Part shown: piece by piece, positions 4,314 through 42,037 of the stretch
Layout of the letters: the number at the start of each line of letters is the position of its first letter
Numbering within the stretch: position 1 is the first letter of the stretch
Source of the DNA: a virus
Taxonomy: Duplodnaviria > Caudoviricetes
Direction: 5' to 3' (one strand)
DNA length: 42,122 bases
IMG/VR virus record: IMGVR_UViG_3300016669_000004
Span: 1-42,122 of that record
Translations under genes and position numbers: made by a program
Notes under the pieces: generated by a model
Databases searched by the model: none
Told to the model about the DNA's origin: nothing
Seen by the model: only the letters and a program-made list of their open reading frames with translations

Positions 4314-4680
4314 CGGAATCAGCTTCAGCCGGTGCGGGCAGCGCCCAACCACCTTCGAGACCCAGCTCATGCACCACATCCCAGCCGACAATGCCCTGTC
4401 GCTGCTGGCCGCGCGGCTGCTGGCCGACCACGGCCCGCAGGAGGGAACCCGCCTGTTCTGCGTAGTCCTGGATGAGCTGCGCGGGGTCAAGCTGTCCGTG
4501 CCGCGGCGCGAGATGTTCTTCGCGCGGCTGTGGAAGACCGAGCGCGACGCCCTGATCCAGCAACTGGCCAGCCGCCCGGGCGGTGACTTCACCCAAGCCG
4601 ACCTGGCGCAGATGTTCGGCCTGTCAAAGCCGCGCATCTCCCAGCTTTTGGGCTCGCCGCTTAACGGCAAATCGTGTTAG
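4306..4680 (+). CDS. Mor/C-like late transcription activator
   Basis: ELRGVKLSVP...RD.LI...TQADLAQMFGLSKPRISQLL C-terminal HTH; directly upstream of terminase. Confidence 0.65.
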   Translation: MIDGISFSRCGQRPTTFETQLMHHIPADNALSLLAARLLADHGPQEGTRLFCVVLDELRGVKLSVPRREMFFARLWKTERDALIQQLASRPGGDFTQADLAQMFGLSKPRISQLLGSPLNGKSC

Positions 4681-4690
4681 ACAATCGCCC

Positions 4691-5479
4691 GTGAAAGACC
4701 CAGACCGCCCCCGCCGCAAGTTGTCCGAAGCCGAGCTCGAGCAGCGCCGCGCCGCCTCGCGCAACAAGCGCACCGTCACCCCGGCGATGCTGGCTGCCAA
4801 CCGCGAGCGCGCCAAGCTCAGCACCGGCCCCATCACCCCCGAGGGCAAGGCCCGCTCCAGCCGCAACGGCTGGAAGACCGGCCTGCACAGCCGCATCCAC
4901 AAGCTGCACTTTGACGCCGGCATGGTCTCGCTGCTGGGCGCCAAGGGCAAACCCTGCGTCAGCACCTGCCCCAAGTTTTCCACCTGCACGCTGGTGGCCG
5001 ACGGCCTCACCAGCCCAGGCGGCGACTGCCTGGACAAGGAGCGATTCGTGCAGGCGTTCGATGCGATCATCGAGGCCGTGCAGGGCGGTGAGATGGCCGG
5101 CATGCACGGCCTGATGGCCTCCGAACTTGCCGCCGCGTTGCAGATGCTGCATGACCTGCGCACCACCATGGCAGACCAGGGCCTGGTGATCGGCATCCCC
5201 ATGATCTCGCCCGAGGGTGAGGTGGTGCGCCGCGCCGATGGCTCTGAGGTCATCGGCAAGTACGTGCCAAACCCCGGCTACCCGCTGATGCTCAAGCAAC
5301 TGGAAGTGATGGGGATCAGCCTGCCCGAGATGCTGGTCACCCCGCAGTCCAAGGAGCGCGCCAAGACCGGAAAGCAGCAGACCGATGCGCTGTCCACCAT
5401 GATGGGCGAGATTGCCGGCCGCGCCGCCGGCATGCGCCCGGCCGCCGTCGGCCTGCCGCACGAAGCGGACGGCGACTGA
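4691..5479 (+). CDS. Putative terminase small subunit
   Basis: Upstream of TerL; STGPITPEGKARSSRNGWKTG motif; start codon uncertain. Confidence 0.6.
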   Translation: MKDPDRPRRKLSEAELEQRRAASRNKRTVTPAMLAANRERAKLSTGPITPEGKARSSRNGWKTGLHSRIHKLHFDAGMVSLLGAKGKPCVSTCPKFSTCTLVADGLTSPGGDCLDKERFVQAFDAIIEAVQGGEMAGMHGLMASELAAALQMLHDLRTTMADQGLVIGIPMISPEGEVVRRADGSEVIGKYVPNPGYPLMLKQLEVMGISLPEMLVTPQSKERAKTGKQQTDALSTMMGEIAGRAAGMRPAAVGLPHEADGD

Positions 5480-5480
5480 C

Positions 5481-7352
5481 ATGGCCACGCGGCAAAACAA
5501 GGCCGGCAGCATGCATCGCCGCATGCTCGATGCCGGCGTGTACGAGCTGGACGAATTCGACGCCTGGATGCAGGCGCGCGGCTGGGCGTGGCAGGGGCTG
5601 GAAAACGGCGTCTACGGCGTGAGCATCGCCGATGCCATGGTCCTGTACACGGTCGAGGACCCGGTGCGCTTCTGCGAGACCTTCATGAAGCGCAACGACG
5701 GATCGCCGTATCGATTCTTCGATTATCAGCGCGAAAGCATCCGCACTTGGAGGCAGGACACGGTAACAATTGCTGGCGCGGAGGTCGGTAAGTCGGTCGA
5801 GCTAACAGCTCTCCTGCTTTGGGGCCACATTACCGGATTCGGCTTTCAAATCAAGGCCCCAACCTCGCTGGTGGCCGCGCCGCAGCAGATCTTCCTCAAC
5901 GAGATCATCGATGCCATCGAGCGGCAGATCGGCGTGTTCAAGGCCATGGAGGGCGAGAGCATCCTCAAGGATGCCTGGATCGAGCCGCGGCGCACCCCGC
6001 ACACCCAACTGCGCCTGCGCAGCTGGGTGGCCGGCGGAAAGCCGGCATTGGCGACCATCGACTTTCGCCCAGCTGGCCATGACGGCAGCGCCTTCCGCGG
6101 CGTGCACTCGACCGCGCTGGTGATGGTGGACGAGGCGGCCAAGATGAAGGCCCAGGTGCAGTGGACCGAGCTGTACCGCGCCCGCATGCCAGGCTGCAAG
6201 AGCCGCTTCTACTCGGTGCCCGATGGAGACCGCAGCACCGAGTTCTACCGCCTCTCGCAAGCAGCGGTGATCGGCCTGCCCGAGGGCCAGCCTGGCTTCC
6301 GCAAGTTCCACTGGCCCAAGACGCTGATGCCGCCGCCGTTCTGGTCGGAGGAACGCGACCGCGAGTTCGTGCGCCTGTACGGCGGCCGCAATACCCCCGG
6401 CTACCAGCGCAACGTGATGGGCGAGTGGGGCGATGCCGAGAACCCGGTCTGGCCGTGGGCGCAGCTGCTGCCCAACATCGTGGACCTGCCCGATTTCCGC
6501 ATCATCAAGCTGATCGCCGACACAGAGGCCGATGTGCTGTCCATCGAGGTCATGGCCTGCACCATGTCCATCCACGATGGCCGCAAGACCGGCAACTACA
6601 CCTGGCTGCAAGATGGCTCCATCCCCCTGCAGCCGCTGCTGCGCGGCGGTGACGACCAGCGCCGGCAGGCCATGCTGGACATCCTGCGCCCGCACCTGAC
6701 GCCGCAGAGCATGGGCGTGTTCTACGCCGGCGCCGACCTGGGCGAGCGCGCCGACCCCACCGCCATCTACCTGAGCGAGCAGGTCGGCCAGACCCTCATC
6801 GACCGCGTGCGCGTGCATGCCCAGGGCTTCCCATATCACCTGCAAGAGGAACTGGTGGCCGCGCTGGATGGCATCTACGGGCGCCTGCCCATGTGGGGCG
6901 TGGACATGGGCTCGGCGGGCACCACGGTGGTCAAGGATTTGATCAACGTAGACCGGTTTGCGCAGTGTCACTTCGAGGACCGGCTGGTGGGGTTCCATTT
7001 CCAGCAGAACGTGGACTGCATGGGCGAGGACGGCGAGCTGCTGGAACAGGAAGACCCGCAAACCGGCGCCACCCACGTGGCCGTGGCCCCGGCCAAGCAC
7101 TGGGCCAGCCAGTGCATCAGCGCCCGCCTGCAGGCCGGCGGCTATGCCATGGCCTACGACACCGACGCGCTCAACGACATGGTCACCCAGACCGCCCGCG
7201 AGGGCGCGCGCTTCCCCATCTACTCCAAGCAGCGCGACCACATCCCCGATGCCCGCCGCCAGCAGATGCTGATCCGCCTGCATGCCCTGCGCGCCGAGGG
7301 CAGCGGACATGACCTGTTCGTCTCGGGAACCTCAGAAAGGCACGCCGCGTGA
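5481..7352 (+). CDS. terL: Terminase large subunit
   Basis: Walker A-like EVGKS, Walker B VMVDEAA, nuclease YAGADLG and C-terminal DHIPDA. Confidence 0.88.
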   Translation: MATRQNKAGSMHRRMLDAGVYELDEFDAWMQARGWAWQGLENGVYGVSIADAMVLYTVEDPVRFCETFMKRNDGSPYRFFDYQRESIRTWRQDTVTIAGAEVGKSVELTALLLWGHITGFGFQIKAPTSLVAAPQQIFLNEIIDAIERQIGVFKAMEGESILKDAWIEPRRTPHTQLRLRSWVAGGKPALATIDFRPAGHDGSAFRGVHSTALVMVDEAAKMKAQVQWTELYRARMPGCKSRFYSVPDGDRSTEFYRLSQAAVIGLPEGQPGFRKFHWPKTLMPPPFWSEERDREFVRLYGGRNTPGYQRNVMGEWGDAENPVWPWAQLLPNIVDLPDFRIIKLIADTEADVLSIEVMACTMSIHDGRKTGNYTWLQDGSIPLQPLLRGGDDQRRQAMLDILRPHLTPQSMGVFYAGADLGERADPTAIYLSEQVGQTLIDRVRVHAQGFPYHLQEELVAALDGIYGRLPMWGVDMGSAGTTVVKDLINVDRFAQCHFEDRLVGFHFQQNVDCMGEDGELLEQEDPQTGATHVAVAPAKHWASQCISARLQAGGYAMAYDTDALNDMVTQTAREGARFPIYSKQRDHIPDARRQQMLIRLHALRAEGSGHDLFVSGTSERHAA

Positions 7353-7392: not shown

Positions 7393-9531
7393 GTGAACCT
7401 GCACCCTCTCGATCCGCGCGGCTGGTTTGGGCGCAAGGATGCACTGGATTCAACCCGCAACCAGGGCGGCATGCTGGCCGCCGCCCAGCGCCAGTCCAGC
7501 CCGATGGGCGCATGGTCCGGCGTGATCGGCCAGTGGCAGCCGCGTGCGCGCTCGCCCTACCTGCTGGAGGCCCTGCGCGAGGCGATCCCCATCCTGGACG
7601 GCGGCATCAACCGGCTGGTGACCCTGGACGGCATCCTCACCGTCGAGGGCGACAACGACGCGCTGGTGCAGGAGATCGACACCTGGATGCGCAACGTGCC
7701 TGTCAATGACCTGGAGTGCGGCTACCAGGCCTTCTACGCCGGGCAGGGTGCCGAGCACTACGAGCAGGGAGTGGGCCTGGGCGAGTTCGTCTACGACCGC
7801 CGCGGGCGCGATGTGATCGGACTGCGCGTGGCCGACAGCAAGGGCCTGGCCTTTGTGCGCGAGACCGACCGCCTGCGCGTGTTCTACCGCACGCCGGAGG
7901 CCACCCGCGACCTGCGCCCCGATGGCCTTGGCGCGGTGGAGCAGCTGCTGTCTGGCACCACTCGCGGAGATACCGTCAGCGGGCTGCGCAGCGAGGGATT
8001 TGTCGAGCTGGACGCGCGCCAGTGCAGCTTTGCCCTGCATCGGCCCGAGGCCGACGACCCCTATGGGGTCAGCATCCTGCGCAGCATGCCGTTTGTCGCG
8101 CAGATCCTGCTGAAGATGGAAAACGCCGCAGGCCGGGCATGGGAGCGCTTTGGCGACCCCAGCTTCCACGTCCACTACGGAACGAAAAACCGCAAGGTGG
8201 ACGCGGCCGAGGCCGACCGGCGCGCCCGCGCCATCGCCGCCGACCTGGCCAAGGCCCTGCAGGCCAAGGCGCGCGGCAACAGCGTGGACCTGAGCACGGC
8301 GGCGGCCATGGACGATGAGATCACCATCGGGGTGATCGGCGCCAACGGCACGGCGCTGGAAATCGAGGCCCCGGCCCGGCACATCCTGGAGCAGATCGTG
8401 GCCGGCTTTGGCCTGCCGGGCTGGATGCTGGGCGTAACCTGGAGCCAGGCGGCCGGCATCGGCGAGCAGCAATCTGTGATCGTGCTGCAGGAAGCGCAGA
8501 CGCGCTTCGAGCTGCGCGAGCCGCAGCTGCGCCGGCCGGTGGAGGCCATGCTGCGCGCCCGCGGCCGCACCTGGAAGAATGGGGACTGGAAGCTGGTGCA
8601 GGTCACGCCAAACTTGATGGACATCCAGAAGCGCGCCCAGGCCGACTTCCTGGCCGCGCAGACGGCCATGATGCTGGGCCAGACCAGCCAGCCCTTGCCA
8701 AGCCCGCGCGGCGTGGACAATGGCCTGCGCGCCAGCCGCGGCGCGCCACGGCGCAAGTCCGGTTCCAAGGCCGGTGGAGACGATGAGGAAGATGGCGGGG
8801 AAAGCTGGGCGCAGCGTGATCCTGCGCTTCCCAGGCTTGAATCCGCCACCATCGACAGGCTGCTGGGCCGCTGGGTCGAACTGCGCGATGACGTGTTCGA
8901 TGAGCTTGGCCTTGATGGCATGGCCGATGACGACTTCCGCTTCGACCAGGACCTCACCGCATCACTGGCCGCACGTGGCAATGCCGCGCAGTCCTCGATG
9001 ACCAAGACTCTTGTGGGGGCCCAGCAAAGCGCATGGGAGCGCGGGATCGCAAATGCAGGGCTCGAAGTATCCGCAGATTTTGGCGATGCGCTGGTGCGCG
9101 CGGCCATCGCCGCCGCCCGCGAGCGCATCCGCACCGTCTATGCGACCAGCGGGCTGGAGCTGGTCAGGTCTGGCATCGCCCGCGAGTACCAGACACGCAT
9201 CGTTGCAGCGCTCACCTCCGGCGAGTTCGACGGCCAGAACCCAGTCAATGTGGCCGCCGCGCTGCGCGCAAGATTCGCGGCAGGTAACTACAACTGGGAG
9301 CGCCTTGCCAGGACCGAGATTGCGATGGCGCAGTCTGAAGGCAAGCTCGACCTGCTGCGGCAGCAGGGTGTCACCCGCTACGATTACGAGACCGCCAACG
9401 ATGCCCTGGTCTCGCGCATCTGCCGCACCCTAGCCGCCGCCGGCCCATACCTGGTGGCAGATCCTGCGTCACCGATACCGGGCCGCGACAGCCACCCCCA
9501 GTGCCGCTGCACCATCATGCCAAGGGATTGA
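7393..9531 (+). CDS. Portal protein fused to MuF-type minor head domain
   Basis: Follows TerL; PYGVSILR and ERFGDP portal motifs; C-terminal RLARTEIAMAQ...HPQCRCTI MuF signature. Confidence 0.82.
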   Translation: MNLHPLDPRGWFGRKDALDSTRNQGGMLAAAQRQSSPMGAWSGVIGQWQPRARSPYLLEALREAIPILDGGINRLVTLDGILTVEGDNDALVQEIDTWMRNVPVNDLECGYQAFYAGQGAEHYEQGVGLGEFVYDRRGRDVIGLRVADSKGLAFVRETDRLRVFYRTPEATRDLRPDGLGAVEQLLSGTTRGDTVSGLRSEGFVELDARQCSFALHRPEADDPYGVSILRSMPFVAQILLKMENAAGRAWERFGDPSFHVHYGTKNRKVDAAEADRRARAIAADLAKALQAKARGNSVDLSTAAAMDDEITIGVIGANGTALEIEAPARHILEQIVAGFGLPGWMLGVTWSQAAGIGEQQSVIVLQEAQTRFELREPQLRRPVEAMLRARGRTWKNGDWKLVQVTPNLMDIQKRAQADFLAAQTAMMLGQTSQPLPSPRGVDNGLRASRGAPRRKSGSKAGGDDEEDGGESWAQRDPALPRLESATIDRLLGRWVELRDDVFDELGLDGMADDDFRFDQDLTASLAARGNAAQSSMTKTLVGAQQSAWERGIANAGLEVSADFGDALVRAAIAAARERIRTVYATSGLELVRSGIAREYQTRIVAALTSGEFDGQNPVNVAAALRARFAAGNYNWERLARTEIAMAQSEGKLDLLRQQGVTRYDYETANDALVSRICRTLAAAGPYLVADPASPIPGRDSHPQCRCTIMPRD

Positions 9532-23400: not shown

Positions 23401-26400
23401 CCGCAGTCGCGCAGGAAATCATCGACAGGTTCAATGCGGACGCGGCGGCGGCCGATGCGCTTGCGGCCGAAGCCCAGGCACGCGCCGATGCGCTGGTGGC
23501 ATTGGCAGAACAGGCCGCAGCGGACGCAACAGCCAAGGCCAACGCCGCACGCGATGCGGCCATCGCCCACGCGGACGTGATCGGCGCCCAGGTGGCTGAC
23601 ATCACTGGCGCCGACGAGTGGGCTACTGGCGTCACCTACCCGGCCGGCGATCTTGTCAAGCGCAACGGCACGCTCTACCGCGCCCTGCAGGAAACTACAG
23701 ACAACCCACCAGAGAGCAGCCCCACATACTGGGAAGCCATCGGCAACTACAGTTCGCTGGGCGAAGCGGTGGCTGCGTCCATCGATATGGGCAACACCAA
23801 CGCCAGCGACATCGAGACCGAGTCCACAAGGCTTGATGGCGTTGTTGCGAGGATGCCGACCGGCACGGGCACCCTTGCGACGTCGGCGAGCGTAACACAG
23901 GAGGCAACGACGCGCGCAAACGCGGACAGCGCACTTAGCTCCAGGACAGGAGTTATCGAAGCGCGCCTGCCTACAGGGACAGACACACTCGCAAACGAGG
24001 CGCGCGTTGTAACAGCTGAGAATGCCAGCGTATCGCGCGACGATGCGATCAGCAGCCGGGTGACGGTTGTCGAAGCGCGGATGCCCGCTGGCACAGGGCA
24101 GCTTGCCACGTCCGCCAGTGTGACTGACCTGCAGACATCAACTGCCAATGCCGACTCCGCGCTCAGTAGCCAGATCACTGCGGCTAATTCACGCATTGAT
24201 GGGAAGGCAGACAGCAGCGCTCTGAATGCTCTGTCTAGCACTGTGACACAACAAGGGAATACGATAACATCGCAAGGCAACGCGATCACGCAAGTCAAAA
24301 GCAGCATCGCGCCCAACGCCAACGTTATTTCAAACAGTGGTGTCGAGGCAGACCTGACAGATTGGGAACTCGGATGGGATTCGGCCAACGTTCGGTCTAC
24401 CCTGGTCCGCGACCGGAATGGACCTGCCTATCCACGAGGGTCTCATAACCTGTCTGTGAACTGGCCTGCTAACTCAGTTGCCGCTGGATCAAACGCATTT
24501 CTAGTAATTAACTCAACTCGAAAGACACCGACTTTTGGAATTTCAAGGGTGTGCCTACAGACTATCTACAATCTGGCTGAAGGCTCGATGGCATTCGGTG
24601 TTGACTTCTTCGACTCGTCTGGCGCATTTATAAGCGGACCGAATGAAACAGTAGGGTCCACTGGTGCGGGCTGGACGACTGTTTTCAGGTTCTACGCAGT
24701 GCCGGAAAATGCAGCAACCATGCGCGCGTGGTTCCGTGGACATGTGACTACAGCCAGTAGTAGTGAGCGGGTGTTGTGGATTGCCCATCCCATGCTCAGT
24801 GCTGCAACCGCTGATCAAACCGTACCCCCGGCATACTCGCCTGGAATGATTGGGATTGACGGTAAGTACGCCTCTGCTACTCAGTCCTTGAATACTCGTG
24901 TCACAACGGTTGAAGGTACGGTTACCTCCCAAAGTTCCAGCATCACGAGTCTTCAGAATACAGTCGCAAACAAAGCTGACAGCAGCGTGGTCAGCGCACT
25001 TGATAGTCGTGTAACAAGCGCAGAGAACACTAACACAAGTCAAAGTTCCAGTATTACTAGCCTACAGAACACAGTTGCAAATAAAGCAGACAGCAGCGCT
25101 CTGAATGCTCTGTCTAGCACTGTGACACAACAAGGGAATACGATAACATCGCAAGGCAACGCGATCACGCAAGTCAAAAGCAGCATCGCGCCCAACGCCA
25201 ACGTTATTTCAAACAGTGGTGTCGAGTCAGACCTGACAGATTGGGAACTCGGATGGGATTCAGCCAACGTTGGGTCTACCCTGGTCCGCGACCGGAACGG
25301 GTTCGCGTATCCCTATGGGTCACACAACCTGTCCGTCATCTGGCCTGCGAACTCAGTTGCGGCAGGCGCCAACGCATACCTGCTGATTAACTCGACGAAG
25401 AAAACGCCGACCTTCGGCATCTCACGCGTGTGCATCCAGACGATCTATGCATTGACCGAAGGCTCGATGGGATTCGGTGTTGACTTCTTCGACTCGTCTG
25501 GCGCATTTATAAGCGGACCGAATGAAACAGTAGGGTCCACTGGTGTGGACTGGACGACTGTTTTCAGGTTCTTCGCAGTACCGGCAAATGCAGCAACCAT
25601 GCGCGCGTGGTTCCGTGGGTTTGTCAACACAGCAAGCAGCAGTGTGCGCACTTTCTTGATTGCGCACCCCATGCTCAGTGCAGCAACTCAGGATCAAACA
25701 GTTGCACCTGTCTATTCACCTGGCGCACTCGGTCTTGATTCCAAATACGCATCTGTCACTCAGTCCCTGACCACGCGCGCCACAAACAGCGAGAACAACA
25801 TCGCGTCGGTGCTGGCCCAATACTTCCTGTCAGTGCAGGCAGGGAACCTTATCGGTGGCATGAAAATTGGCAACAACGGGTCAGTGGTGGACTTTGCGAT
25901 CCTTGCGAATATCTTCCGCATTGTTGACCCAAGCAACTCGGCTAACCTGCTGAGCTATATCAACGGCAACCTGACTGTCAGTGGTATTGTCGAAGGTTCT
26001 CTGCTGAAGTCCTCCGCAATGGAACTTGGGTCAACGCGCATCCATACAGGGAGTGGGCGGTTGGCACCATTCACGATCAACGACAGTGCATTCAATCTGC
26101 TTGCCAGCAATGCCGTGTCGAGTCAAACAGTCACAGTATCAGGGTTCGTGGGGCCTGCCAACGGGAGCGGATACAACGCCAAGCGGTTCTCGCGCCAGCG
26201 GATGGACGTGTATCTGAAGACGCTGATTGCCGCAGATGATGGTAACGAAGAATTGTATATCGAGGTTCAGTATGACGGCGGTGGGTGGAGCACTATCCAG
26301 TCATACCCATTCGACGGTAACAACCGGACGACGATCCAGATATCTATCCGCTACACCACGCTTGACTCATGGTCAACAGTCGCATTTCGTGCAAGGACAA

Positions 26401-29088: not shown

Positions 29089-29445
29089 TCAATCGATCGG
29101 GACTATCGTGCAGCGGCATCGCTTGCAGTGTGGATATCCTGGGAGCGCCCCGTCCTCGACAGAGAATGGGCTATGCGCGGCCAGATCCAAGCACGCCGCA
29201 CATGTCGCACTGTCACCGGCCGTGGATATCTCGTAGCGTCTAACACCTTGCTCTCGGAAAGACTGCAGTTTGGACATATATTGAGCACGCGAGCACTCTT
29301 GCCAGACAATATCTAGAAGGTCATCTGGAGCCACTGAGGGGAATTCCCTCCGCAGCTTTCTCGCAATGTTTGCTGGATTTTCACCGGCAAACCTCTTGTC
29401 GGACAACTTCTTGATGACCAAGGCCCGATGATCATGTGCACTCAT
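29089..29445 (-). CDS. Stand-alone MuF-like Cys-motif protein
   Basis: EQGVRRYEISTAGDSATCAAC...PHCKRCRCTIVP; in the cI operon. Confidence 0.6.
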   Translation of the reverse strand: MSAHDHRALVIKKLSDKRFAGENPANIARKLRREFPSVAPDDLLDIVWQECSRAQYMSKLQSFREQGVRRYEISTAGDSATCAACLDLAAHSPFSVEDGALPGYPHCKRCRCTIVPID

Positions 29446-30119: not shown

Positions 30120-30194
30120 CTGGCTAGATTGGCAAAAAAAACTAGCCATTTGGTGCTTGACGCCGGAGCAACATGTGGCTAGATTGCCTAGCCA
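30108..30194. promoter_or_regulatory. Genetic switch: PR-like promoter and GGCTAG operators
   Basis: TTGACG(30157)-17 bp-TAGATT(30180); palindrome TGGCTAG-N5-CTAGCCA at 30176-30194; more half-sites at 30108-30148; both ATGs sit 6-8 nt from -10-like boxes (probably leaderless). Confidence 0.75.
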
Positions 30195-30391
30195 TGGACA
30201 ACGTCGAAGCCACTCGCAACACCCTTCGCACCCACCGCGGCACCTGGCCCGACATCGCACAGTCGGCTGGCCTGTCGTACTGGTGGCTGCTGAAATTCGC
30301 CCAGGGCCAGATCAAGGAGCCTGGGGCCGCCAAGATGGAGAAGCTGAAGACAGAGCTGGCACTGCGCCGCCCCAAGGCCAGGGCCGCCTGA
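30194..30391 (+). CDS. Cro-like regulator
   Basis: 65 aa HTH WPDIAQSAGLSYWWLLKFAQGQIKEPG; divergent from cI. Confidence 0.8.
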   Translation: MDNVEATRNTLRTHRGTWPDIAQSAGLSYWWLLKFAQGQIKEPGAAKMEKLKTELALRRPKARAA

Positions 30392-31152
30392 TGCGTGCCA
30401 TCGGCTACATCCGCGTCTCCACCGAGGAGCAGGGCCGCGACGGGCACTCGCTGGCCATGCAGCCCGAGCGCATCCGCCAGTGGTGCGCGCTGCACGAGCT
30501 GGAGCTGGTCAACATCATCGAGGACCGCGGGGTCAGCGCGGGCACGCCGCTGGACAAGCGCAAGGGCGGGGTGCATCTGATGCAGGCGCTGAGCGCCGGC
30601 GAGGCGCAGGTGGTGGTGGTGTTCCGGCTGGACCGGCTGTTCCGCGACACGTTGGACGGGCTGCTGTTCTTCCGCCAGTTCGCCGAGCCGCGCGGGCTTG
30701 TGGTGCAGTCGGTCAGCGAGCTGATCGACACCGGCACCCCGCAGGGCCGGCTCAACCTCAACCTGCAGCTGTCGCTGGCCGAGTACGAGCGGGCGGTCAC
30801 CTGCGAGCGCAACAGCGCGGTGGCCCGCCACCTGCGCCAGGCCGCGCGGCCGTTTGGCTACACGCCCTATGGGGTGGTCAGGATCGAGGGCCGGCTGTAC
30901 CGCGACCCGGAAACCTGGCCCTACCGCGAACGCATCATGGCCCTGCGCGCGCAGGGCAAGAACGGCCGGCCGTGCAGCCTGGAGCGCATCTCCGAGGCGC
31001 TGCACGAGCTGGGCATCCCCGCCCCGCATGGCGGGCGGCGGTGGAACAAGCCAAGCATCGCGCGAGTGATCAAGACCCATGAGGCGATGGAGCATTACCC
31101 GCCGGCGCCAAAGGGCCAAGAAGCCGTGGTTTCACGTGGAGAGCTGCAATGA
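30391..31152 (+). CDS. Serine recombinase (resolvase domain plus short recombinase-type C-terminus)
   Basis: AIGYIRVSTEEQ catalytic Ser motif, VFRLDRLFR, PFGYTPYG. Confidence 0.92.
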   Translation: MRAIGYIRVSTEEQGRDGHSLAMQPERIRQWCALHELELVNIIEDRGVSAGTPLDKRKGGVHLMQALSAGEAQVVVVFRLDRLFRDTLDGLLFFRQFAEPRGLVVQSVSELIDTGTPQGRLNLNLQLSLAEYERAVTCERNSAVARHLRQAARPFGYTPYGVVRIEGRLYRDPETWPYRERIMALRAQGKNGRPCSLERISEALHELGIPAPHGGRRWNKPSIARVIKTHEAMEHYPPAPKGQEAVVSRGELQ

Positions 31153-32804: not shown

Positions 32805-33037
32805 TGCAGCTCCCACACATCCTGCGCATCTGTGTCGAAGCCAGGAGGAACAACAGCCCGGGGCCACTTTCTACCGGCGAGGCCCTGGCCGCGGCCATCG
32901 TGCTCGATCGGCCGGAGTGGATCAAGGCCATGGGATACACCCTGGCCGAGGCCATCGCCCGCGTCGATGACGATGGCCAGACCATGCCGCGCCTGCTCAA
33001 GGCCCAGCAGCTGCTTGAAGGCGAGGTGGCAGCATGA
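32804..33037 (+). CDS. Hypothetical protein
   Basis: Coupled ORF; LSTGEALAAAIVLDRPEWI.AMGYTLAEAIARV. Confidence 0.65.
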   Translation: MQLPHILRICVEARRNNSPGPLSTGEALAAAIVLDRPEWIKAMGYTLAEAIARVDDDGQTMPRLLKAQQLLEGEVAA

Positions 33038-33981
33038 ACGCACAAGCCCCTGTCTTCATCGATACCGCCATCAACCAGTACCTGGTCATCCGCCAGGCGC
33101 GCGGGCTGGCGCACAACACCATCCTGGCCTACGGCGCCGACTTGCGGCACTTCGCAGCCTACGCGGCCGGCTTTGACACCACGGTGGTGCAGCTGATCAG
33201 CGAGCGGCTGGTCAACCGGTGGATCGACACCGGCCTGTTGCACCTCAAGTGGTCCCGCCGCACCGCCGCGCGCAAGCTGGAGGCCGTGCGCGGCTTTACC
33301 GCCTGGTGCCGGCGCGAGCGCTACATCCAGCACGACCCGTGCCAGGACCTGCGCATCCGCTTCCGTCCACGCCGTGTGATCGCCCCGGAGATGGGGCCGC
33401 TGCGCGAGATGGTGTCCGGCATCGGCACCACCACGCCGGTGGACCTGCGCGACCGCGCCATGCTGCTGCTGATGCTGGATGCGGCCCTGCGCGCCAACGA
33501 GGTGGCCCAGCTGGATATCCGCCCGCCAGGCGCGGCCATCCCCAGCTACTGGGCCGACACCAGCCACCTGCGCGTGTACGCCATGCCCAAGGGCGGCGAG
33601 GCGGGCGATGCGGACATGGTGGGCATGGAGGACCAGACTGCCGCGGCCATCGATGCCTGGCTGGCGGTGCGCCACAAGCTGGCCGGCGCGGGTGAGACGG
33701 CGCTATTCGTCAACCAGCATGGCCGCCGGATCAGCCGCGGCGGCCTGTACCACGTGGTGCGCGCGCGCGGCGCCGCTGCCGGCATTGCCCGCCTGCATCC
33801 GCACAAGCTGCGCCACCGCCGCATCGGCGACATCACCGAGGCCCTGGGCCTGCACATCGCCAGCGCCCAGGCCCGCCACCGCAACACCAGCACCACTGCC
33901 AGCATCTACGGTGCCCACGCCGCCGAGGTCCAGCGCGCCGCCGTGCGCCAGCTGGCGCCGGTGGGGGAGGTGCGGGCATGA
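33034..33981 (+). CDS. Divergent tyrosine recombinase (no. 2)
   Basis: Xer-like N-terminus RGLAHNTILAYGADL; ALRANE (R), PKGG (K), HPHKLRH, ARHRNTSTTASIY (H, Y). Confidence 0.88.
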   Translation: MNAQAPVFIDTAINQYLVIRQARGLAHNTILAYGADLRHFAAYAAGFDTTVVQLISERLVNRWIDTGLLHLKWSRRTAARKLEAVRGFTAWCRRERYIQHDPCQDLRIRFRPRRVIAPEMGPLREMVSGIGTTTPVDLRDRAMLLLMLDAALRANEVAQLDIRPPGAAIPSYWADTSHLRVYAMPKGGEAGDADMVGMEDQTAAAIDAWLAVRHKLAGAGETALFVNQHGRRISRGGLYHVVRARGAAAGIARLHPHKLRHRRIGDITEALGLHIASAQARHRNTSTTASIYGAHAAEVQRAAVRQLAPVGEVRA

Positions 33982-34913: not shown

Positions 34914-35233
34914 GGCGCCCAGACAAGCCGGTGGTGGTCAACATCCACCTGCACAGTTTCGAGCAGATCGCAGCACTGATCCAGGCCCGTACCAGATCCT
35001 GGCGCTGCGACCGGCTCATGGCCACGGTGGCCAGCAACGGAGACATCCGCTGCCGCGACATCGGCAAGGAATCCAGCCGCAACGACGCGCTGGCGCGCGA
35101 CATCATCGGAACCTTCAGCCGCGACGCGCAGATCGAGGACATCGAGGACGCAGTGATCGCGCAGATGCGCTCGATGCAGATCATGCCGGAGCGCTGCGCG
35201 GAGCCTGCGCGGCGGGCGGGGGTGGCGGCATGA
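34910..35233 (+). CDS. Hypothetical protein
   Basis: ATGA-coupled ORF. Confidence 0.6.
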   Translation: MRRPDKPVVVNIHLHSFEQIAALIQARTRSWRCDRLMATVASNGDIRCRDIGKESSRNDALARDIIGTFSRDAQIEDIEDAVIAQMRSMQIMPERCAEPARRAGVAA

Positions 35234-35535
35234 GCGCCGACACCATCCACGCAGACACCTGCATGACGCCCATGCAGGCCGCCGCCATCCTCAAGCTCCA
35301 CAACGCCTGGCGGCGCGGGGAGGGCGACCACACCGCAAGGCCCGGAGAGATCGGACAGGCGCTCGACATTGCCGTGGCCGAGCTAGAGCGCGCCGCAAAC
35401 TGCCCCAGCTGCGTTACGGGCGGCTCCGCTTGCGGCCTGGCCATCACCTTCGATCGCGCCGGCGCACCAATCTGCGGGAACTGCTGGTCCATCCAGGAGA
35501 CCAAGACCCGCAGAAAGGAGGCGCCAGATGCGTAA
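35230..35535 (+). CDS. Hypothetical protein
   Basis: ILKLHNAWRRG motif plus two CxxC pairs. Confidence 0.62.
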   Translation: MSADTIHADTCMTPMQAAAILKLHNAWRRGEGDHTARPGEIGQALDIAVAELERAANCPSCVTGGSACGLAITFDRAGAPICGNCWSIQETKTRRKEAPDA

Positions 35536-36142
35536 GCGCCTCACCGCCTGGCTGTTCAGCATGCTGATGGTGCGCGTGGCCGGCCGCCGGCCTCCAAACT
35601 TCATCGTCGGGGCCGATGATCCGGCCGGAGCCTACCTGCGCCGCTGGTACATCACCCCGTGGCGGGGCTGGTTTCAGGCCATTCCCGAGCCGCAGCGCAA
35701 CCGCTGGCAGCGCTCGGTGGTGTGGACCACCCAGCACTTGCTGCCCAATCTGTACCTGCACCAGTTCCTGCGCGATGACGACGACAGGGCCATGCACGAC
35801 CATCCATCGTGGGCGGTCAGCCTGATCCTGCGCGGCGCCTACCTGGAGCACACCCGCGGCCCAGATGGCCGGCCCATGCGGCATCTGTACGAGGCCGGCA
35901 GCCTGCGCTTCATGCCGACACTGCACACCCATCGCATCGAGCTGCTGCGCGATGTGGTGGTGCCCATAGATCAAAATGGCGCTGGCCAGCCTCCAGCCGT
36001 GCATTCCAGGCCATGCTGGACGCTGTTCATGTTTGGCCCCAAGCGCCGCGACTGGGGCTTCTGGTGCGGCGATCGCTGGGTGCCATGGCAGCAGTTCACC
36101 GCCGCTGGAAAGCCAGGCGAAGTCGGCAGGGGCTGCGACTGA
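35528..36142 (+). CDS. Cupin-like phage protein
   Basis: YLRRWY...NLYLHQFLRDDDDRAMHDHP...LILRGAYLE...HRIEL...WTLF. Confidence 0.65.
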   Translation: MRKRLTAWLFSMLMVRVAGRRPPNFIVGADDPAGAYLRRWYITPWRGWFQAIPEPQRNRWQRSVVWTTQHLLPNLYLHQFLRDDDDRAMHDHPSWAVSLILRGAYLEHTRGPDGRPMRHLYEAGSLRFMPTLHTHRIELLRDVVVPIDQNGAGQPPAVHSRPCWTLFMFGPKRRDWGFWCGDRWVPWQQFTAAGKPGEVGRGCD

Positions 36143-36521
36143 TGGCCGCCCACCAATGCCCCGCCTGCGGAAGCCTCACCAGCGCGCCCACCTGCTGCGG
36201 CGTGCCGCTGGACAGGCCATTCATCATGGACCGGGAGCGCATCAAGGCCCTGCGCCGCTATGCCCACGGACGCAAGGGCCTGGACCTGGACACCTACACC
36301 CTCAAGCTGCTGGCCGTCGGAGCCCCACCAGCACCACCGCGCTGACCCGCACCCAGTATGTGATCGACGACTTTAAGGACCAGTTGCTGATCGTGCTGCT
36401 GCGCCGGCTTGGGAGCACCGTGACCATCCCCGTTCGTGAGGTCGATGACACGGGACGCTACGTGTGCTCGTTTAGCGTCAAGAACGACGCTTTCAATTTT
36501 GAAGTGACGGAGAAGCAATGA
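36142..36521 (+). pseudogene. Frameshifted Zn-finger gene fused to the 3' part of another gene
   Basis: MAAHQCPACG... stops at 36345; another frame carries TSTTALTRTQY|VIDDFKDQLLIVLLRRLG with no clear start of its own. Confidence 0.45.
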
Positions 36522-36838
36522 GCAACACCACTCTGACCGACGGATCGCCCGTCACGCCCGACCACCGCGACATTGACCCGGCCACAGGCATGCAGAAGGG
36601 CTATGTGGTCTTGAGCGCCGAAGAGCGCGCCAAGGGCTTCGTGCGGCCTGTGCGCCAGTCCTACGTGCACACCAAGTGCGGTGGCGTGACGACGATGGGC
36701 CTTGCATTGGCCGAGACCTATGCGCGCGACCCCAAGTTCTACAGCGGCATGTATTGCGCGATTTGCCGCACCCACTTCCCAGTGGGCGCCGATGGTGAGT
36801 TCACGTGGAAGGGCACGGACGAGAAAGTGGGCACGTGA
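36518..36838 (+). CDS. Conserved phage hypothetical protein (Cys-containing)
   Basis: GMQKGYVVLSAEERAKGFVRPVRQSYVH.KCG...ETYARDPKFYSGMYCAIC. Confidence 0.78.
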   Translation: MSNTTLTDGSPVTPDHRDIDPATGMQKGYVVLSAEERAKGFVRPVRQSYVHTKCGGVTTMGLALAETYARDPKFYSGMYCAICRTHFPVGADGEFTWKGTDEKVGT

Positions 36839-36839
36839 C

Positions 36840-36929
36840 GCCTAACACCTGAGTTAAGCGGTGCCGCACCCGCGCGGCACCAGATAGGAGAGATAACGAT
36901 GCGGCATCCGCTTGAACGAATTGTTAGGC
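36840..36929 (-). repeat. attC site 1 (90 bp)
   Basis: Minus strand GCCTAAC-AATTC-GTTCAAGC...GCTTAAC-TCAGGT-GTTAGGC. Confidence 0.88.
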
Positions 36930-37336
36930 CCGACCTGGTGCCTGGAGTGGTGCGGTGTGCGAAGTGCAGCTTTCAATTGCACCGCACGAATCTGCACATG
37001 AGCAACGGAACAACAAGCGCAGGGGACAGCGACACCGAGCCGTGCCCGAACGGCTGCGGCCCGCTGTGGCCTGTAACTTGGAAGCAATGGGCCGAAGAAG
37101 CAAGCGCCACAGCTGAAAGGTTCTTTGACGAATCCCAAGAAGCAAAAAAGCTGGTGGACGACTTGGCGTATCTGGTGCGGCGATTAGCCCATTCACTCGA
37201 TAAGCCGAGTGGAAACTGCCTCTTGGCGAGGCAGGCAGTGGACTACTTGCGACGGCATGACCTAGAAGGGTCAACATTGCGCGATCAAGGGCATAACGCT
37301 CCGCATAAGCCGCGTAGCGAAGCGGAGTCGGCTTGA
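36899..37336 (+). CDS. Cassette E gene: phage Zn-ribbon hypothetical protein
   Basis: VPGVVRCAKCSF...PCPNGCGPLWPVTW; RBS and ATG lie inside attC1, stop inside attC2. Confidence 0.72.
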   Translation: MRHPLERIVRPDLVPGVVRCAKCSFQLHRTNLHMSNGTTSAGDSDTEPCPNGCGPLWPVTWKQWAEEASATAERFFDESQEAKKLVDDLAYLVRRLAHSLDKPSGNCLLARQAVDYLRRHDLEGSTLRDQGHNAPHKPRSEAESA

Positions 37337-37350
37337 TGCGGTTGTTAGGC
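37291..37350 (-). repeat. attC site 2 (60 bp)
   Basis: Minus strand GCCTAAC-AACCG-CATCAAGC...GCTTATG-CGGAGC-GTTATGC. Confidence 0.88.
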
Positions 37351-37366
37351 GATTTTGGAGGATGAG

Positions 37367-37702
37367 ATGAGCGACGATTATTACTACAGCGGGCAGTATG
37401 CCGAAGAACAGGCCGAGGCCGAGGCGCAGGCAAAAGAGTTTGCGCACCGACCTGGGCCATGGCATGTCAGCGAGCACACCGAAGGAAGCGAGGCGCTAAT
37501 TTACGACGCCGATGGGTTTGAGGTTGCGCGGGTGTGCTACCCAAACCGGAATGCGGACGCGAAGCTGATTGCTGCTGCGCCTGAACTTCTCCAATCGGCA
37601 AGCGCGGCATTGCATTACATGCGACTGCACAAGTACGCGGATCAGGCATGGGCTGATGATTTGGAGGCTGCGATTGCTGCGGCCATGACGCCTAACACCT
37701 GA
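37367..37702 (+). CDS. Cassette D gene: phage hypothetical protein
   Basis: GGAGG RBS; HRPGPW...DAKLIAAAPELL phage motif. Confidence 0.78.
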   Translation: MSDDYYYSGQYAEEQAEAEAQAKEFAHRPGPWHVSEHTEGSEALIYDADGFEVARVCYPNRNADAKLIAAAPELLQSASAALHYMRLHKYADQAWADDLEAAIAAAMTPNT

Positions 37703-37749
37703 ATTAAGCCGACAGCCGAAGGCTGTTCGGCTTGAATGAATTGTTAGCC
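37690..37749 (-). repeat. attC site 3 (60 bp)
   Basis: Minus strand GGCTAAC-AATTC-ATTCAAGC-CGAACAGCCTTCGGCTGTCG-GCTTAAT-TCAGGT-GTTAGGC, textbook attC layout. Confidence 0.93.
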
Positions 37750-37776
37750 GTCAACCCGACGGCATGGAGAAACGAC

Positions 37777-38052
37777 ATGCAAGAACCGACGATATTGCCA
37801 GTGAAGCCCGGCACCGTGAGCGATGCGGACAAGGCCGCGTTGAGGGATGCCGGAGTGGTGGTCATTGAACACGAAGCACCACATGAACTGCGCTTGTTGC
37901 GCCTCGGATACGACTTGCCAGGAGGCGCGCTGCTGCTCGCAGCGGCCAAGGCATTGACGACAGAAAACAGTCTTGGTGCAGACATCCAACGGCGGGTATT
38001 CGGGAAAAATGTGGCAGACGCCTTGATCAAAACCATGACGGCTAACGCCTGA
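37777..38052 (+). CDS. Cassette C gene: hypothetical protein
   Basis: GGAG RBS; fills the cassette. Confidence 0.72.
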   Translation: MQEPTILPVKPGTVSDADKAALRDAGVVVIEHEAPHELRLLRLGYDLPGGALLLAAAKALTTENSLGADIQRRVFGKNVADALIKTMTANA

Positions 38053-38099
38053 AATCAGCCGACTTGCGAAGCAAGTTCGGCTGCATTGAATTGTTAGGT
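38040..38099 (-). repeat. attC site 4 (60 bp)
   Basis: Minus strand ACCTAAC-AATTC-AATGCAGC...GCTGATT-TCAGGC-GTTAGCC. Confidence 0.88.
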
Positions 38100-38123
38100 G
38101 GCGAACCACCGAAGGAGATTGGA

Positions 38124-38432
38124 ATGGGAGTTGCGCAAGAGAACCGAATCCGTAGGCGGATGATTGAGGACGGCCATCGCAAAAATGATCTTGTACGCCT
38201 GTTTGAGGCGGCAAGCATGGAGCGGGGCCCGAGACCGCCCGCTGTGAAGCCGCCAGCGACGGCGCGTCGTCGAGACGTGCGGCGGTGGATGCAGCACAAC
38301 GCGGGTGATTACGACACTGCGACCGCGCTTGCCGAGGCAGCGAATGCAGTATTTCGGCTACCTGATGGCGGACTTGACTGCGAGACTCATTGGATCTGGG
38401 ATGAAGCCGCAGAAGCAATTGAAGCCACCTAA
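38124..38432 (+). CDS. Cassette B gene: hypothetical protein
   Basis: AAGGAG RBS; stop TAA lies within the ACCTAAC core. Confidence 0.72.
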   Translation: MGVAQENRIRRRMIEDGHRKNDLVRLFEAASMERGPRPPAVKPPATARRRDVRRWMQHNAGDYDTATALAEAANAVFRLPDGGLDCETHWIWDEAAEAIEAT

Positions 38433-38486
38433 CACCGGAAATAAGCCGCCCTGCGAAGCAGGGTCGGCTTGATTGACTAGTTATGC
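38427..38486 (-). repeat. attC site 5 (60 bp)
   Basis: Minus strand GCATAAC-TAGTC-AATCAAGC...GCTTATT-TCCGGT-GTTAGGT. Confidence 0.88.
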
Positions 38487-38502
38487 CGCGCAACGAGGAG
38501 CC

Positions 38503-38946
38503 ATGCTGACAATCACGCCAATAACGCTACGCGAGGCAAATGCCTACGTCGCGGCCAATCACCGGCACCACCAGCCGGTGCGCGGGTGCATTGCCTGCAT
38601 GGCTGTGAGCGATGGCGACCTGGTGCGCGGCGTGGCGATTGTGGGGCGGCCAGTGGCGAGGCGGCTGCAAGACGGCTGGACAGCAGAAGTGACGCGGTGT
38701 TGCACGGACGGCGCGAAGAACGCGCCGAGCATGCTCTACCGCGCAGCATGGCGCGCTGTGCGTGCGCTGGGATACAGGCGGCTTGTGACGTACACGCTGC
38801 CGGAGGAAGGCGGCGCGAGCCTGCGCGCAGCTGGCTGGCGCTGCATTGGCCAAGCCGGAGGTGGGATCTGGAATTGCCCGAGCCGGCCGCGAGTGGATAT
38901 GCACCCGCTGCAAGTGAAACTGCGGTGGGAATTGGAAGCGGCATAA
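38503..38946 (+). CDS. Cassette A gene: XF1762/Mom-like GNAT-fold protein
   Basis: ITLREANAYV..HRHH...GVAIVGRPVARRLQDG.TAEVTR...GYRRLVTYTL..EGGASLRAAGW. Confidence 0.75.
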   Translation: MLTITPITLREANAYVAANHRHHQPVRGCIACMAVSDGDLVRGVAIVGRPVARRLQDGWTAEVTRCCTDGAKNAPSMLYRAAWRAVRALGYRRLVTYTLPEEGGASLRAAGWRCIGQAGGGIWNCPSRPRVDMHPLQVKLRWELEAA

Positions 38947-39020
38947 CACCAATTATCCGCCGCATCTGCAACGTAACGCCGCGATCCCAGACAACCCAAA
39001 CGAAAACGAAGGCGTAACAG
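38941..39020 (-). other. attI-like terminal site of the cassette array
   Basis: Core G/TTATGC with no attC hairpin; two GTTACG direct repeats upstream on the minus strand. Confidence 0.5.
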
Positions 39021-39058: not shown

Positions 39059-40630
39059 ATGGCTGACGGCTCGCACTCCTTCAATTTCCCGCCGCCTCAG
39101 CACTCGCGGCTGCGCCCGGGCGAGATCATCGTGGATCTATTCGCCGGAGGTGGCGGAGCCAGCGAGGCGCTCAAGCAGGCGCTCGGCCGCGACCCAGACT
39201 TGGCCTACAACCACGACGCATGGGCCATCGGCATGCACGCGGCAAACCATCCGCTCACATCCCACCATCGCGAGGACATCTGGCACGCAGACCCACGCAT
39301 CGATGTCGCCGGGCGCCAAGTTGGCTGGTTTCATGCCAGCCCAGATTGCACGCATTTCTCTCAAGCAAAAGGCGGCCAGCCGCGCAGCGGCAAGATCCGC
39401 TCGCTGACGTGGGTCATCCTCAAGTGGGTTGGGCAGCTCAGGCGTGCCGACCAGATCAACTGCACCAGCACCGCCCCGCGCATCATCTCGCTCGAGAACG
39501 TCTGGCAGATCCTGACCTGGGGCCCGCTGGTTGCAAAGCGTGACAGGACCACCGGCCGCGTGTTGAAGCTGGATGGCAGCGTGGCTGGGCGCGGCGAGCG
39601 TGTGCCCAGGAACATGCAGCAGCTTGTCCCTGACAAGCGCCACGCGGGCCGTACCTGGCGCAAGTTCGTCGCTGCCCTGCGTGGCATGGGCTACGCCGCG
39701 GAGTGGCGCAAGCTCACGGCCAGCGACTACGGCGCCGGCACCAGCCGCGCCAGGCTGTTCCTGGTCGCTCGGCGCGATGGAGAGCCGATCCGGTGGCCAG
39801 CACCGACCCATGGCAAGGAACCTGGCCTGCTGCCACTGGTCACCGCCGCCGATTGCATCGACTGGTCCATTCCATGCCCCTCGATCTTCGCCCGCCGCAA
39901 GCCTCTGGCCGATGCCACGCTGCGCCGGATTGCCAAGGGCGTGCACCGTTACGTCCTGGACACCGCCGAGCCATTCATCGTGTGCGGGGGTGGGCTCCAG
40001 GGCCACTGCGTCCCCACACTGGTCGCCTGCGCCAATGCCAGCGCCAGCGGCGTGACAGCCGCAGATGCGCCGCTTGGGACCATCACCGCCTGGCCACGCG
40101 GCGGAAGCACTGCGCTGGTGACGGCCTTCATCGAGCAGGCCAACGGCGGCTTCTACAACGGCGCCGGGAATGACCTGCGACGGCCGATGCCAACCATCTG
40201 CGGCACCGGCAGCCAACAGCGGCTGGTCGCCGGCTATCTGGCCGCGGCCGAAGCACCAGAGCACGAGGCCACCGCCCTGCGCGTGGCCGCTTTCCTGACG
40301 ACCTACTACGGCACCGGCGGCGCCGTGAAGCTGACAGATCCGCTGGACACGATCACAACCCGAGATCGGCTGGCCCTGGTCACCGTGACCATCAAGGGCA
40401 TGCCCTACGTCATCATCGATATCGGCCTGCGCATGCTCAAGCCGCACGAACTCTACCGAGCCCAGGGATTTCCAACCGGCTACGTCATCGACCGCACCGC
40501 CGACGGCCGCCGCCTGACCACCAGCGCCTCAGTCCGCATGGTCGGCAACAGCGTGAGCCCACCGCCCCTGCGCGCCATCGCCACCGCCAACCTTGACACG
40601 GCCCAGATGCAGCTTGCGGAGGCCGCATGA
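39059..40630 (+). CDS. C5 DNA cytosine methyltransferase (orphan)
   Basis: VDLFAGGGG, SPDCTHFS, LENV, RARLF, MVGNSVSPP. Confidence 0.92.
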   Translation: MADGSHSFNFPPPQHSRLRPGEIIVDLFAGGGGASEALKQALGRDPDLAYNHDAWAIGMHAANHPLTSHHREDIWHADPRIDVAGRQVGWFHASPDCTHFSQAKGGQPRSGKIRSLTWVILKWVGQLRRADQINCTSTAPRIISLENVWQILTWGPLVAKRDRTTGRVLKLDGSVAGRGERVPRNMQQLVPDKRHAGRTWRKFVAALRGMGYAAEWRKLTASDYGAGTSRARLFLVARRDGEPIRWPAPTHGKEPGLLPLVTAADCIDWSIPCPSIFARRKPLADATLRRIAKGVHRYVLDTAEPFIVCGGGLQGHCVPTLVACANASASGVTAADAPLGTITAWPRGGSTALVTAFIEQANGGFYNGAGNDLRRPMPTICGTGSQQRLVAGYLAAAEAPEHEATALRVAAFLTTYYGTGGAVKLTDPLDTITTRDRLALVTVTIKGMPYVIIDIGLRMLKPHELYRAQGFPTGYVIDRTADGRRLTTSASVRMVGNSVSPPPLRAIATANLDTAQMQLAEAA

Positions 40631-41073
40631 GCCGCGGCTACCAGCGCGTCATCGTCACTGGCCACCTCGGCGCCGCGCCAGAGATCAAGGCCCCACCAGC
40701 CGGTGGGCTGATCGCAGAGTTCCGCGTGGCCGTCACCGACCGCTGGAAAAACAGGGCAGGGCAGTGGGACGAACACACCGAGTGGCTGGGCATCAAGGCC
40801 TTTGGCCGCACCGCCGAGATCGTCCAGCAGTATCTGCGCAAGGGCGGCCTGGTATCGGTGGAGGGCAAGATCAGGACAGAGAAATGGCAGGCCAGCGACG
40901 GCAGCGACCGCTACCGCCAGTGGATCTACTGCGACCCCACCGGCCTGACCCTGCTTGATCGGCGCGAACACACCGTCACCGCGCCTGAGCACCAGGGCAG
41001 GGCAGCCCATCCAGCAGCGCGCCCCGGCGCCACACCAGCACATGAGCACGCCGATGACGACATCCCATTCTGA
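40627..41073 (+). CDS. ssb: Single-stranded DNA-binding protein
   Basis: VIVTGHLGAAPE...TEW...YLRKG..VSVEGKIRT.KW; DDDIPF C-terminus. Confidence 0.93.
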   Translation: MSRGYQRVIVTGHLGAAPEIKAPPAGGLIAEFRVAVTDRWKNRAGQWDEHTEWLGIKAFGRTAEIVQQYLRKGGLVSVEGKIRTEKWQASDGSDRYRQWIYCDPTGLTLLDRREHTVTAPEHQGRAAHPAARPGATPAHEHADDDIPF

Positions 41074-41074
41074 T

Positions 41075-42037
41075 TCACGGCGCCACGCGCCTGGCCCGCG
41101 GGTGATGGCTTGCCGCCTGCTTCAGCGTGGCCATGTCGATGCCAAGGTAGCGCGTCGTGGTCTCGATGCTGGCATGCCCGAGCATCTGGCTGATCGCCAT
41201 CAAATTGCAGCCGCTGCGCTGCAGTTCAGTGGCAAAGGCGTAGCGCAGTTGGTGCGGGTAGTGTCCCGTCCATGGTCGGCCAGTGCCGGGCCGGATGCGG
41301 TCTGCGCCGCAGGAGATGCCAAGCGCCTTGCGCGCGTAGCGGTTGACGATCACCCAGACCGAGCGGCCATCGCGCAGCGGGCGGCCAAAGCGGGTGACAA
41401 ACAGCGCCGCACGCTTTCCGGCCCCAACGCTCGCCCGCTGGCGCACATAGGCCTCCACCAGCCCATGCCAGGCCGCACCAAACGGCACCAGCCGGTCGCG
41501 GCCGCCCTTGCCCTGCACATACAGCAGCCCGTCCAGTCGCACGCTGCCAAGCTGCAGCCGTGCAAGCTCCCCGGCCCGCAGCCCACACTGGTACAGCGTG
41601 GCCATGATCAAATGGTCGCGCAGACCCACGAAGGTGGACAGGTCAGGCTGGGCCAGCAACAGGCCCACTTCGGCATCGCTCAACGCCATCACCGGCCGCC
41701 GCACCACAGGCCGTGTCACTGGCCAGTCCACCGGCGCCCAGGCCGTGGCATCAACCAGCCGCCGCCAGCCGAACCAGCACCGCAGCGCCGCCAGCTCGCG
41801 CTTGAGCGTGGCCGGCGCCAGCCGCTCGCGCCGGCTGGCCACGTAGCGCAGCACAGGGTCCAGCTCAGCCGGAACCCGCTCCGCGAACAGCAAAAACCGC
41901 GTCACCGTCCCACCGTAGTCACGCACCGTCGCAGCGCTACGCCCCATGCCGCGCAAGTACCACCGGAAGTCCTCAACCGCCCCCGAAGGCGGAGAGCAAT
42001 AACGCCGCGTTCTTTCTACCAACGGTAAAACCTCCAT
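41075..42037 (-). CDS. Tyrosine recombinase/integrase, XerD-like (no. 3), next to attR
   Basis: CGLRAGE (R), GKGGRDR (K), PHQLR, LGHASIETTTRY. Confidence 0.93.
   Translation of the reverse strand: MEVLPLVERTRRYCSPPSGAVEDFRWYLRGMGRSAATVRDYGGTVTRFLLFAERVPAELDPVLRYVASRRERLAPATLKRELAALRCWFGWRRLVDATAWAPVDWPVTRPVVRRPVMALSDAEVGLLLAQPDLSTFVGLRDHLIMATLYQCGLRAGELARLQLGSVRLDGLLYVQGKGGRDRLVPFGAAWHGLVEAYVRQRASVGAGKRAALFVTRFGRPLRDGRSVWVIVNRYARKALGISCGADRIRPGTGRPWTGHYPHQLRYAFATELQRSGCNLMAISQMLGHASIETTTRYLGIDMATLKQAASHHPRARRVAP

Follow-up and report, generated by a model that had tools for sequence, protein, structure and literature searches.

The locus examined here raises the question of how a phage comes to carry an array of integron-type recombination sites in which all of the genes are turned round, and which enzyme could move such units. 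The window, i.e., the whole stretch of 42,122 nt that was analysed, is the entire virus record IMGVR_UViG_3300016669_000004, which is 97% complete and represents a temperate tailed phage with genes for packaging, head, tail and lysis. After a repressor-like gene on the minus strand comes the early region, on the plus strand, where a serine recombinase and small genes are followed by the array, a C5 DNA methyltransferase and SSB. Among named phages, KY697807 is the nearest (terminase 50%). The explanation considered probable is that the array comprises five mobile integron-type cassettes with genes on the attC bottom strand and, likely, an attI at one end, and that it probably belongs, as a member without integrase, to a family of phage integrons, IntI being provided from outside. 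Elsewhere in the window, the replication region has two copies (1537 and 2664) of one 45-nt stretch that contains short internal repeats, and a small minus-strand ORF (29089–29445) and the C-terminal portion of the portal ORF (about 9200–9531) both match one set of minor head protein families, possibly reflecting a duplicated domain.

A sequence-only reading had proposed five attC sites, and all were recovered both by a box-and-spacer scanner and by a covariance model: attC1 (36840–36929, 90 nt, 64.7 bits) and four 60-nt sites, attC2 (37291–37350, 49.1 bits), attC3 (37690–37749, 63.9 bits), attC4 (38040–38099, 65.9 bits) and attC5 (38427–38486, 65.8 bits), each with its top strand on the minus strand. 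The R''/R' core boxes, the L''/L' boxes and the spacers are present. The scanner returned exactly these five sites with minus as top strand, against a chance average of 0.03 hits per sequence over 30 shuffled versions of the 42 kb, and its one weak plus-strand hit (24802–24927) is not in the covariance-model list. The model was trained on 24 attC sites from arrays of the bacterial type, none taken from the window, but these had been picked by the same scanner and so the layout is common to both methods. Run on both strands, as the earlier reading had advised, it gave the five sites 49–66 bits on the minus strand and 14.6–22.5 bits on the plus strand. The plus strand folds with z values of -4.2, -2.4, -5.0, -4.1 and -3.7 for sites 1 to 5, and the predicted hairpins show extra unpaired, extrahelical bases on this strand, in agreement with the assignment of minus as attC top strand. 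Sites 2–5 have a GAA loop on the plus strand, and in the available text of Nivina et al. (PMC5027507) this loop belongs to the bottom strand of attC; together with the unpaired bases, this marks the plus strand as the one that IntI would fold and cut. Since a CALIN is defined as two or more attC sites within 4 kb on one strand with no integron integrase close by (available text of PMC4889954), and the window has five within 1.65 kb on one strand and neither intI nor a remnant of it, the array is by definition a CALIN. It would work like an integron array and departs from the canonical cassette in the strand of its genes.

The cassette lengths given by the earlier reading (451, 399, 350, 387 and 514 bp) are correct when the crossover is placed at AA|C. 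Cassette 1 (36846–37296) carries gene 1 (36899–37336), which has a weak phrog_660 match, starts inside attC1, whose loop holds its RBS (36886–36890) and ATG (36899), and stops inside attC2. In cassette 2 (37297–37695), gene 2 (37367–37702) matches phrog_1273 and stops inside attC3. Gene 3 (37777–38052) of cassette 3 (37696–38045) has no family match but four homologues (48–93%), and also stops inside the next hairpin. Gene 4 (38124–38432) of cassette 4 (38046–38432) again has no family match, uses the TAA of the next core as its stop and found 30 hits, including the window's own protein, while an Atlas search gave no usable hit. Gene 5 (38503–38946) of cassette 5 (38433–38946) belongs to the XF1762 family, is a Mom-like DNA modification protein by PHROG, and likewise ends with the TAA of a core. 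To these can be added a feature that the earlier description did not include, a truncated sixth unit to the left of the array (36359–36845, plus strand), which holds the 3' part of a small gene and gene 0 (36518–36838) and has lost its hairpin; in three other viral loci (L008, L009 and L010), an attC precedes this pair of genes. It had further been stated that the ends of every cassette are complementary to each other. This holds for cassettes 3–5 (11, 10 and 10 of 12 positions) but not distinctly for cassettes 1 and 2 (8 and 9 of 12), which tie with cross pairs; across 182 viral units, own ends have 2.6 extra paired bases versus 0.5 in shuffled pairs.

All five genes lie on the plus strand, as had been claimed, and so oppose the canonical order of a top-strand gene followed by its attC; here the hairpin comes first and a bottom-strand gene follows it. 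The coding assignment is borne out by PHROG matches for genes 1, 2 and 5, which are to phage families and bear out the phage-type cargo, by full-length homologues for genes 3 and 4, and by genes 2 and 5 differing from their relatives mostly at third codon positions. Such observations weigh upon the idea that a fragment of a host chromosomal integron was captured in reverse, with plus-strand ORFs arising by chance. The 60-nt sites are indeed similar to those of a canonical array, four of the five cassettes have a GC content of 56–58% versus 65%, and one loose end in sequencing run X1 reads as a cassette of canonical layout that has this type of site. Against this stand the phage families, the homologues, the synonymous bias and the ribosome sites (four of four genes tested) of the plus-strand genes, and the recurrence of the same layout in other viral loci, so that this origin is largely refuted and scarcely credible.

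That recurrence was seen in several ways. One pattern scan produced 69 viral loci, some of them overlapping, and in these (one canonical contig excluded) a ribosome site with a start was found on the bottom strand in 59 of 72 units and on the top strand in three; in canonical controls the same test found two bottom and four top among 30, and is thus insensitive for the top strand. Every attC hit around homologues of gene 5 (22/22) and of gene 0 (17/17) is on the strand opposite the gene, with attC sites at five of the 41 loci of gene 5 relatives and no attC hit at the rest. A scan with a phage IntI as query yielded 80 viral and 80 genome loci, the latter from one of 64 parts. In the viral loci intI is on plus and the attC top strands are on minus, facing away from intI as in the usual integron; intI does not lie on the attC top strand, as it would with an inverted integrase. 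Among 74 ORF pairs drawn at random from 114 in these loci, PHROG hits fall on the bottom strand in 26 cases versus three on the top strand, the three being HTH families; the bacterial IntI loci are canonical (25 calls versus 4). A noisy longest-ORF test gave 29 inverted versus 16 canonical calls in the viral IntI loci, half of the latter belonging to canonical arrays in three loci (L301, L294 and L260), and the longer ORF is on the top strand in 35 of 120 units. DNA methyltransferase families are frequent among the inverted cassette genes of viral IntI loci L233–L310. An exception to the inverted rule is seen in L235 (4612–5950), where an exact tandem duplicate of a cassette beside attI has top-strand genes (HTH match) and a promoter-like stretch. 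Two other viral IntI loci (L266, 7544–8972; L291, 3347) have attC sites downstream of intI as well, and L163 (2751–3714), a complete related phage, has a different inverted array after its methyltransferase, the first unit being without a hairpin.

Evidence for movement comes chiefly from cassette 2, which is present in two other viral contigs, L195 and L196. These have attC2 and gene 2 in common and differ past both cores. The identical stretch runs from the core ahead of attC2 to the core behind gene 2, so that the gene moves together with the hairpin preceding it. The cassette stands alone in L195 (the same as L403), as an insert of exactly 399 bp at AA|C. Six loci were fetched by way of the neighbouring gene; five have an empty site and the sixth is L195 itself. 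The empty site was not found among cultured phages; it is viral contigs that have it. Contigs from three other studies carry cassettes 1, 2 and 5 singly at about 99% identity with cassette-exact ends: one matches 36842–37293 with two differences and then diverges, and another has cassette 2 (37295–37698, one difference) between foreign flanks on both sides. A sister phage is 99.2% identical over 35053–36358, beyond which come a gene end of its own, an attC and a cassette that differs from the window's. The expectation of the earlier reading that relatives gain or lose cassettes exactly at the core is thereby borne out by the L195 insertion compared with the empty sites, by the single-cassette contigs and by the L195/L196 borders, and the units move with borders at the core as canonical cassettes do. 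Judged by these comparisons, the cassettes of the window are mobile as units.

Cassette 5 has other neighbours in L085, at 78% and with the hairpin ahead of the gene less conserved than the gene, and in run X2 (38429–38947, two differences). Near-identical pieces of cassette 3 occur in runs X2 and X3, the small-share runs X10–X20 having been left out of this comparison; joints ending at the start of attC3 leave cassette 3 unproven as the follower, because only 21–29 letters are present there and that start is common. A co-travel test of hairpin and gene over 248 units yielded informative pairs only from canonical arrays, so for phages the co-travel evidence rests on L195, L196, L085 and the contigs of the other studies. 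The source-like run, for which there are only contigs, lists no circle junction. In run X1, the summed depth over 37671–37837 is about 14x that of the flanks, implying that this sample holds many similar attC sites, and its loose ends read as canonical as well as inverted cassettes. The cultured phage collection has the array in no record, with matches only to gene 0, gene 5 and one attC, and a plasmid search returned matches only to attC and XF1762.

The same data bear upon a mechanism that needs no site-specific enzyme, in which the hairpins would be shared linkers for homology-driven shuffling by RecA or phage recombinases, or else RNA elements. The first 24 nt of sites 1, 3, 4 and 5 are alike at 75–96%, and several genes begin or end inside hairpins, as such a role would allow. 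The insertion in L195, however, shares no more than AAC with its target, the borders fall on the core and not across the repeat, and an Rfam search of the window gave no match; this mechanism is therefore regarded as highly improbable.

The borders of the array are of two kinds. On the left, at 36358/9, a gene of the phage backbone is fused into the middle of the truncated two-gene unit at a short homeologous stretch with no att core. On the right, a sixth attC was considered and ruled out (fold z of +0.7), and the site there is attI-like instead (38941–38977, minus strand), with a core box, a short spacer and a second TAAC box 26 nt on. It was ranked with a profile of 28 sites ahead of phage IntI genes, the motif being common to the intervals between last cassette and intI, and came third of 84,154 positions. 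Two other positions of the window score higher, and it is first among those with the second box; its score of 11.8 lies towards the bottom of the training range (1.5–28.8). The top score of this profile belongs to a near-identical repeat of about 45 nt (24320 and 25199, 879 bp apart) within the long tail fibre gene. No promoter-like site resembling Pc was found by scan at the candidate attI, and the array genes would face against a promoter there. Promoter and terminator scans of the window were at chance level (three promoter sites versus 1.5 expected).

Such borders invite the view that the array is a frozen relic, its cassettes having once been mobile elsewhere and then been brought into this phage in one block, through homologous or illegitimate recombination, to be immobile ever since. 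A left junction lying inside a gene without an att core, the lack of intI and a weak attI score would all suit this. It sits poorly with five hairpins that are all intact, with the different cassette content of so close a sister phage, and with the near-identical single cassettes found elsewhere with exact ends, and we consider it unlikely. The preferred reading is of cassettes still mobile by means of an IntI from outside.

The window encodes three tyrosine recombinases (3174–4313, 33034–33981 and 41075–42037) and one serine recombinase (30157–31152) in 42 kb, and KY697807 has a similar set in the same order. That this phage has no IntI, as had been noted, was upheld: all three tyrosine recombinases score far under the IntI cut-off of 265 bits, the IntI insertion is absent from the two that were aligned, and no intI remnant was found beyond the array. 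In the place that intI takes in IntI-bearing relatives are the C5 DNA methyltransferase and SSB (39059–41073, plus strand). An intI with the IntI-specific insertion, as a complete integron has, is present in L008, L009, L075 and L112.

The earlier suggestion that one of the phage's own tyrosine recombinases is the catalyst was not supported. The nearest of them is the Xer-like enzyme at 41075–42037 (minus strand), relatives of which lie near IntI-less arrays in L163 and L192, directly adjoining the end site in the latter, and the end site of the window has a TAA-N6-TTA spacing that we take to be dif-like. But this enzyme scores only 43.9 bits with the IntI profile and is without the IntI insertion, five further relatives have no attC within 8 kb downstream (0/5 loci), and the syntenic KY697807, which has such recombinases, shows no attC in the 16 kb examined. 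Moreover, eight of 15 near-complete attC-bearing records have no tyrosine recombinase (PF00589) match. Two complete phages with ten attC hits each are without such a match, and must therefore depend on a trans-acting enzyme. Movement by the phage's own Xer-like enzymes, three of which are encoded, is thus very unlikely.

A scan of 40 attC-bearing records found one IntI above the cut-off, in a canonical array, and one more contig of the pattern scan, outside the 40, has an IntI (L149 and L309, one contig name). Of five contigs tested that have attC-like sites next to a relative of gene 0 or gene 5, four had a true IntI over the TIGR02249 cut-off, located in each of the four right behind the array and co-directional with its genes. 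The IntI of L009 matches VchIntIA with an E value of 1.5e-80 and has the insertion, and the relatives' enzymes keep the catalytic and other IntI residues (57–60 of 60). In an IQ-TREE analysis, 59 viral IntIs form one branch (SH-aLRT 99) with no separate genome row, one genome contig, equal in length to a viral record, having been dropped as an identical protein and both samples being query-biased; FastTree gave a viral clade of 60 rows, L281 moving out of it in IQ-TREE. Outside the 59-row clade, IntIs beside inverted arrays are found in L075, L112, L309 and L281. A GenBank virus record, KX853513 (L393), has an IntI-like gene annotated xerD (4680–5678) and, on the strand that carries the genes, two weak attC hits (8415–8813).

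From integron biology, it may be supposed that the folded plus strand is cut at AA|C, that an IntI supplied in trans excises and inserts cassettes, and that new ones would enter at the candidate attI on the right. The likeliest enzyme for this site would be a phage-clade IntI from a co-resident phage; a host IntI could also perform attC x attC excision. In general, attI sites prefer their own IntI. The layout suggests that transcription of the array genes reads through from the early promoter of the phage, to the left; intI, where present, would then close the operon, and the newest cassette would lie farthest from the promoter.

Phage CALINs as such are already published (Qi et al. 2023, PMC9892861), and those described in its available text resemble the window in having an attC cluster without intI in a phage and cargo of methyltransferase type; their attC sites recombined with IntI1. 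Their example TJE1 differs in being canonical, the covariance model hitting its three sites on the gene strand, and the available text of that paper gives no description of bottom-strand genes, hairpin-first units or a phage IntI clade. Complete integrons, both class 1 and sedentary chromosomal, have the attC boxes, unpaired bases, GAA loop and AA|C in common with the window, as far as the available texts of PMC5027507 and PMC4889954 describe them, and their usual intI-attI-attC geometry is kept in its IntI-bearing relatives. The window differs from them in its bottom-strand genes, which would run against a Pc, in having no intI, in its phage early-gene cargo and, likely, in expression from the far end. 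The Treponema inverted-integrase integrons (available texts of PMC4889954 and PMC9668308) have intI and cassette genes co-directional, as do the phage arrays, but in Treponema intI is flipped relative to attC, whereas in the phages the relation of intI to attC is usual and the genes are flipped. IntI is reported to insert at secondary sites (available text of bioRxiv 2022.09.11.507474), and the lone cassette 2 in L195, like the SALINs and attG insertions of that preprint, is at a secondary GTT site; unlike SALINs, its target is the end of a phage gene and its own gene is on the bottom strand, so that it joins the phage operon. A literature search, in which most subscription journals were outside coverage, found no paper describing phage cassette genes on the bottom strand, and the reversed layout is regarded as a novel variant of the integron cassette.

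A wider proposal can be made, held tentatively and with slightly less than even confidence: that phages run an integron system of their own, in which a phage IntI lineage with its own attI serves a shared pool of mirror-image cassettes used by many IntI-less phages, the present one among them, that ordinary early genes, such as relatives of gene 5, are newly packaged as cassettes, and that reversed polarity separates the phage and host pools. The last point would follow because a promoterless host defence cassette inserted in a phage attI would run antisense to the phage operon, and likewise a host attI would place a phage cassette antisense to Pc. As one metagenome survey kept genes by their top-strand association (available text of PMC7370490), a pool of reversed cassettes may have been overlooked. 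The origin of cassettes is named as unknown in the available text of PMC4889954, and gene families that phages carry as ordinary genes in some cases and as cassettes in others provide matched pairs for its study. Integrons have been viewed as bacterial devices, and the selectivity for the bottom strand as serving the alignment of genes with Pc; phages appear to use this chemistry with the gene reversed, and it offers a site-specific route to the mosaicism of phage early regions, their DNA-modification genes included.
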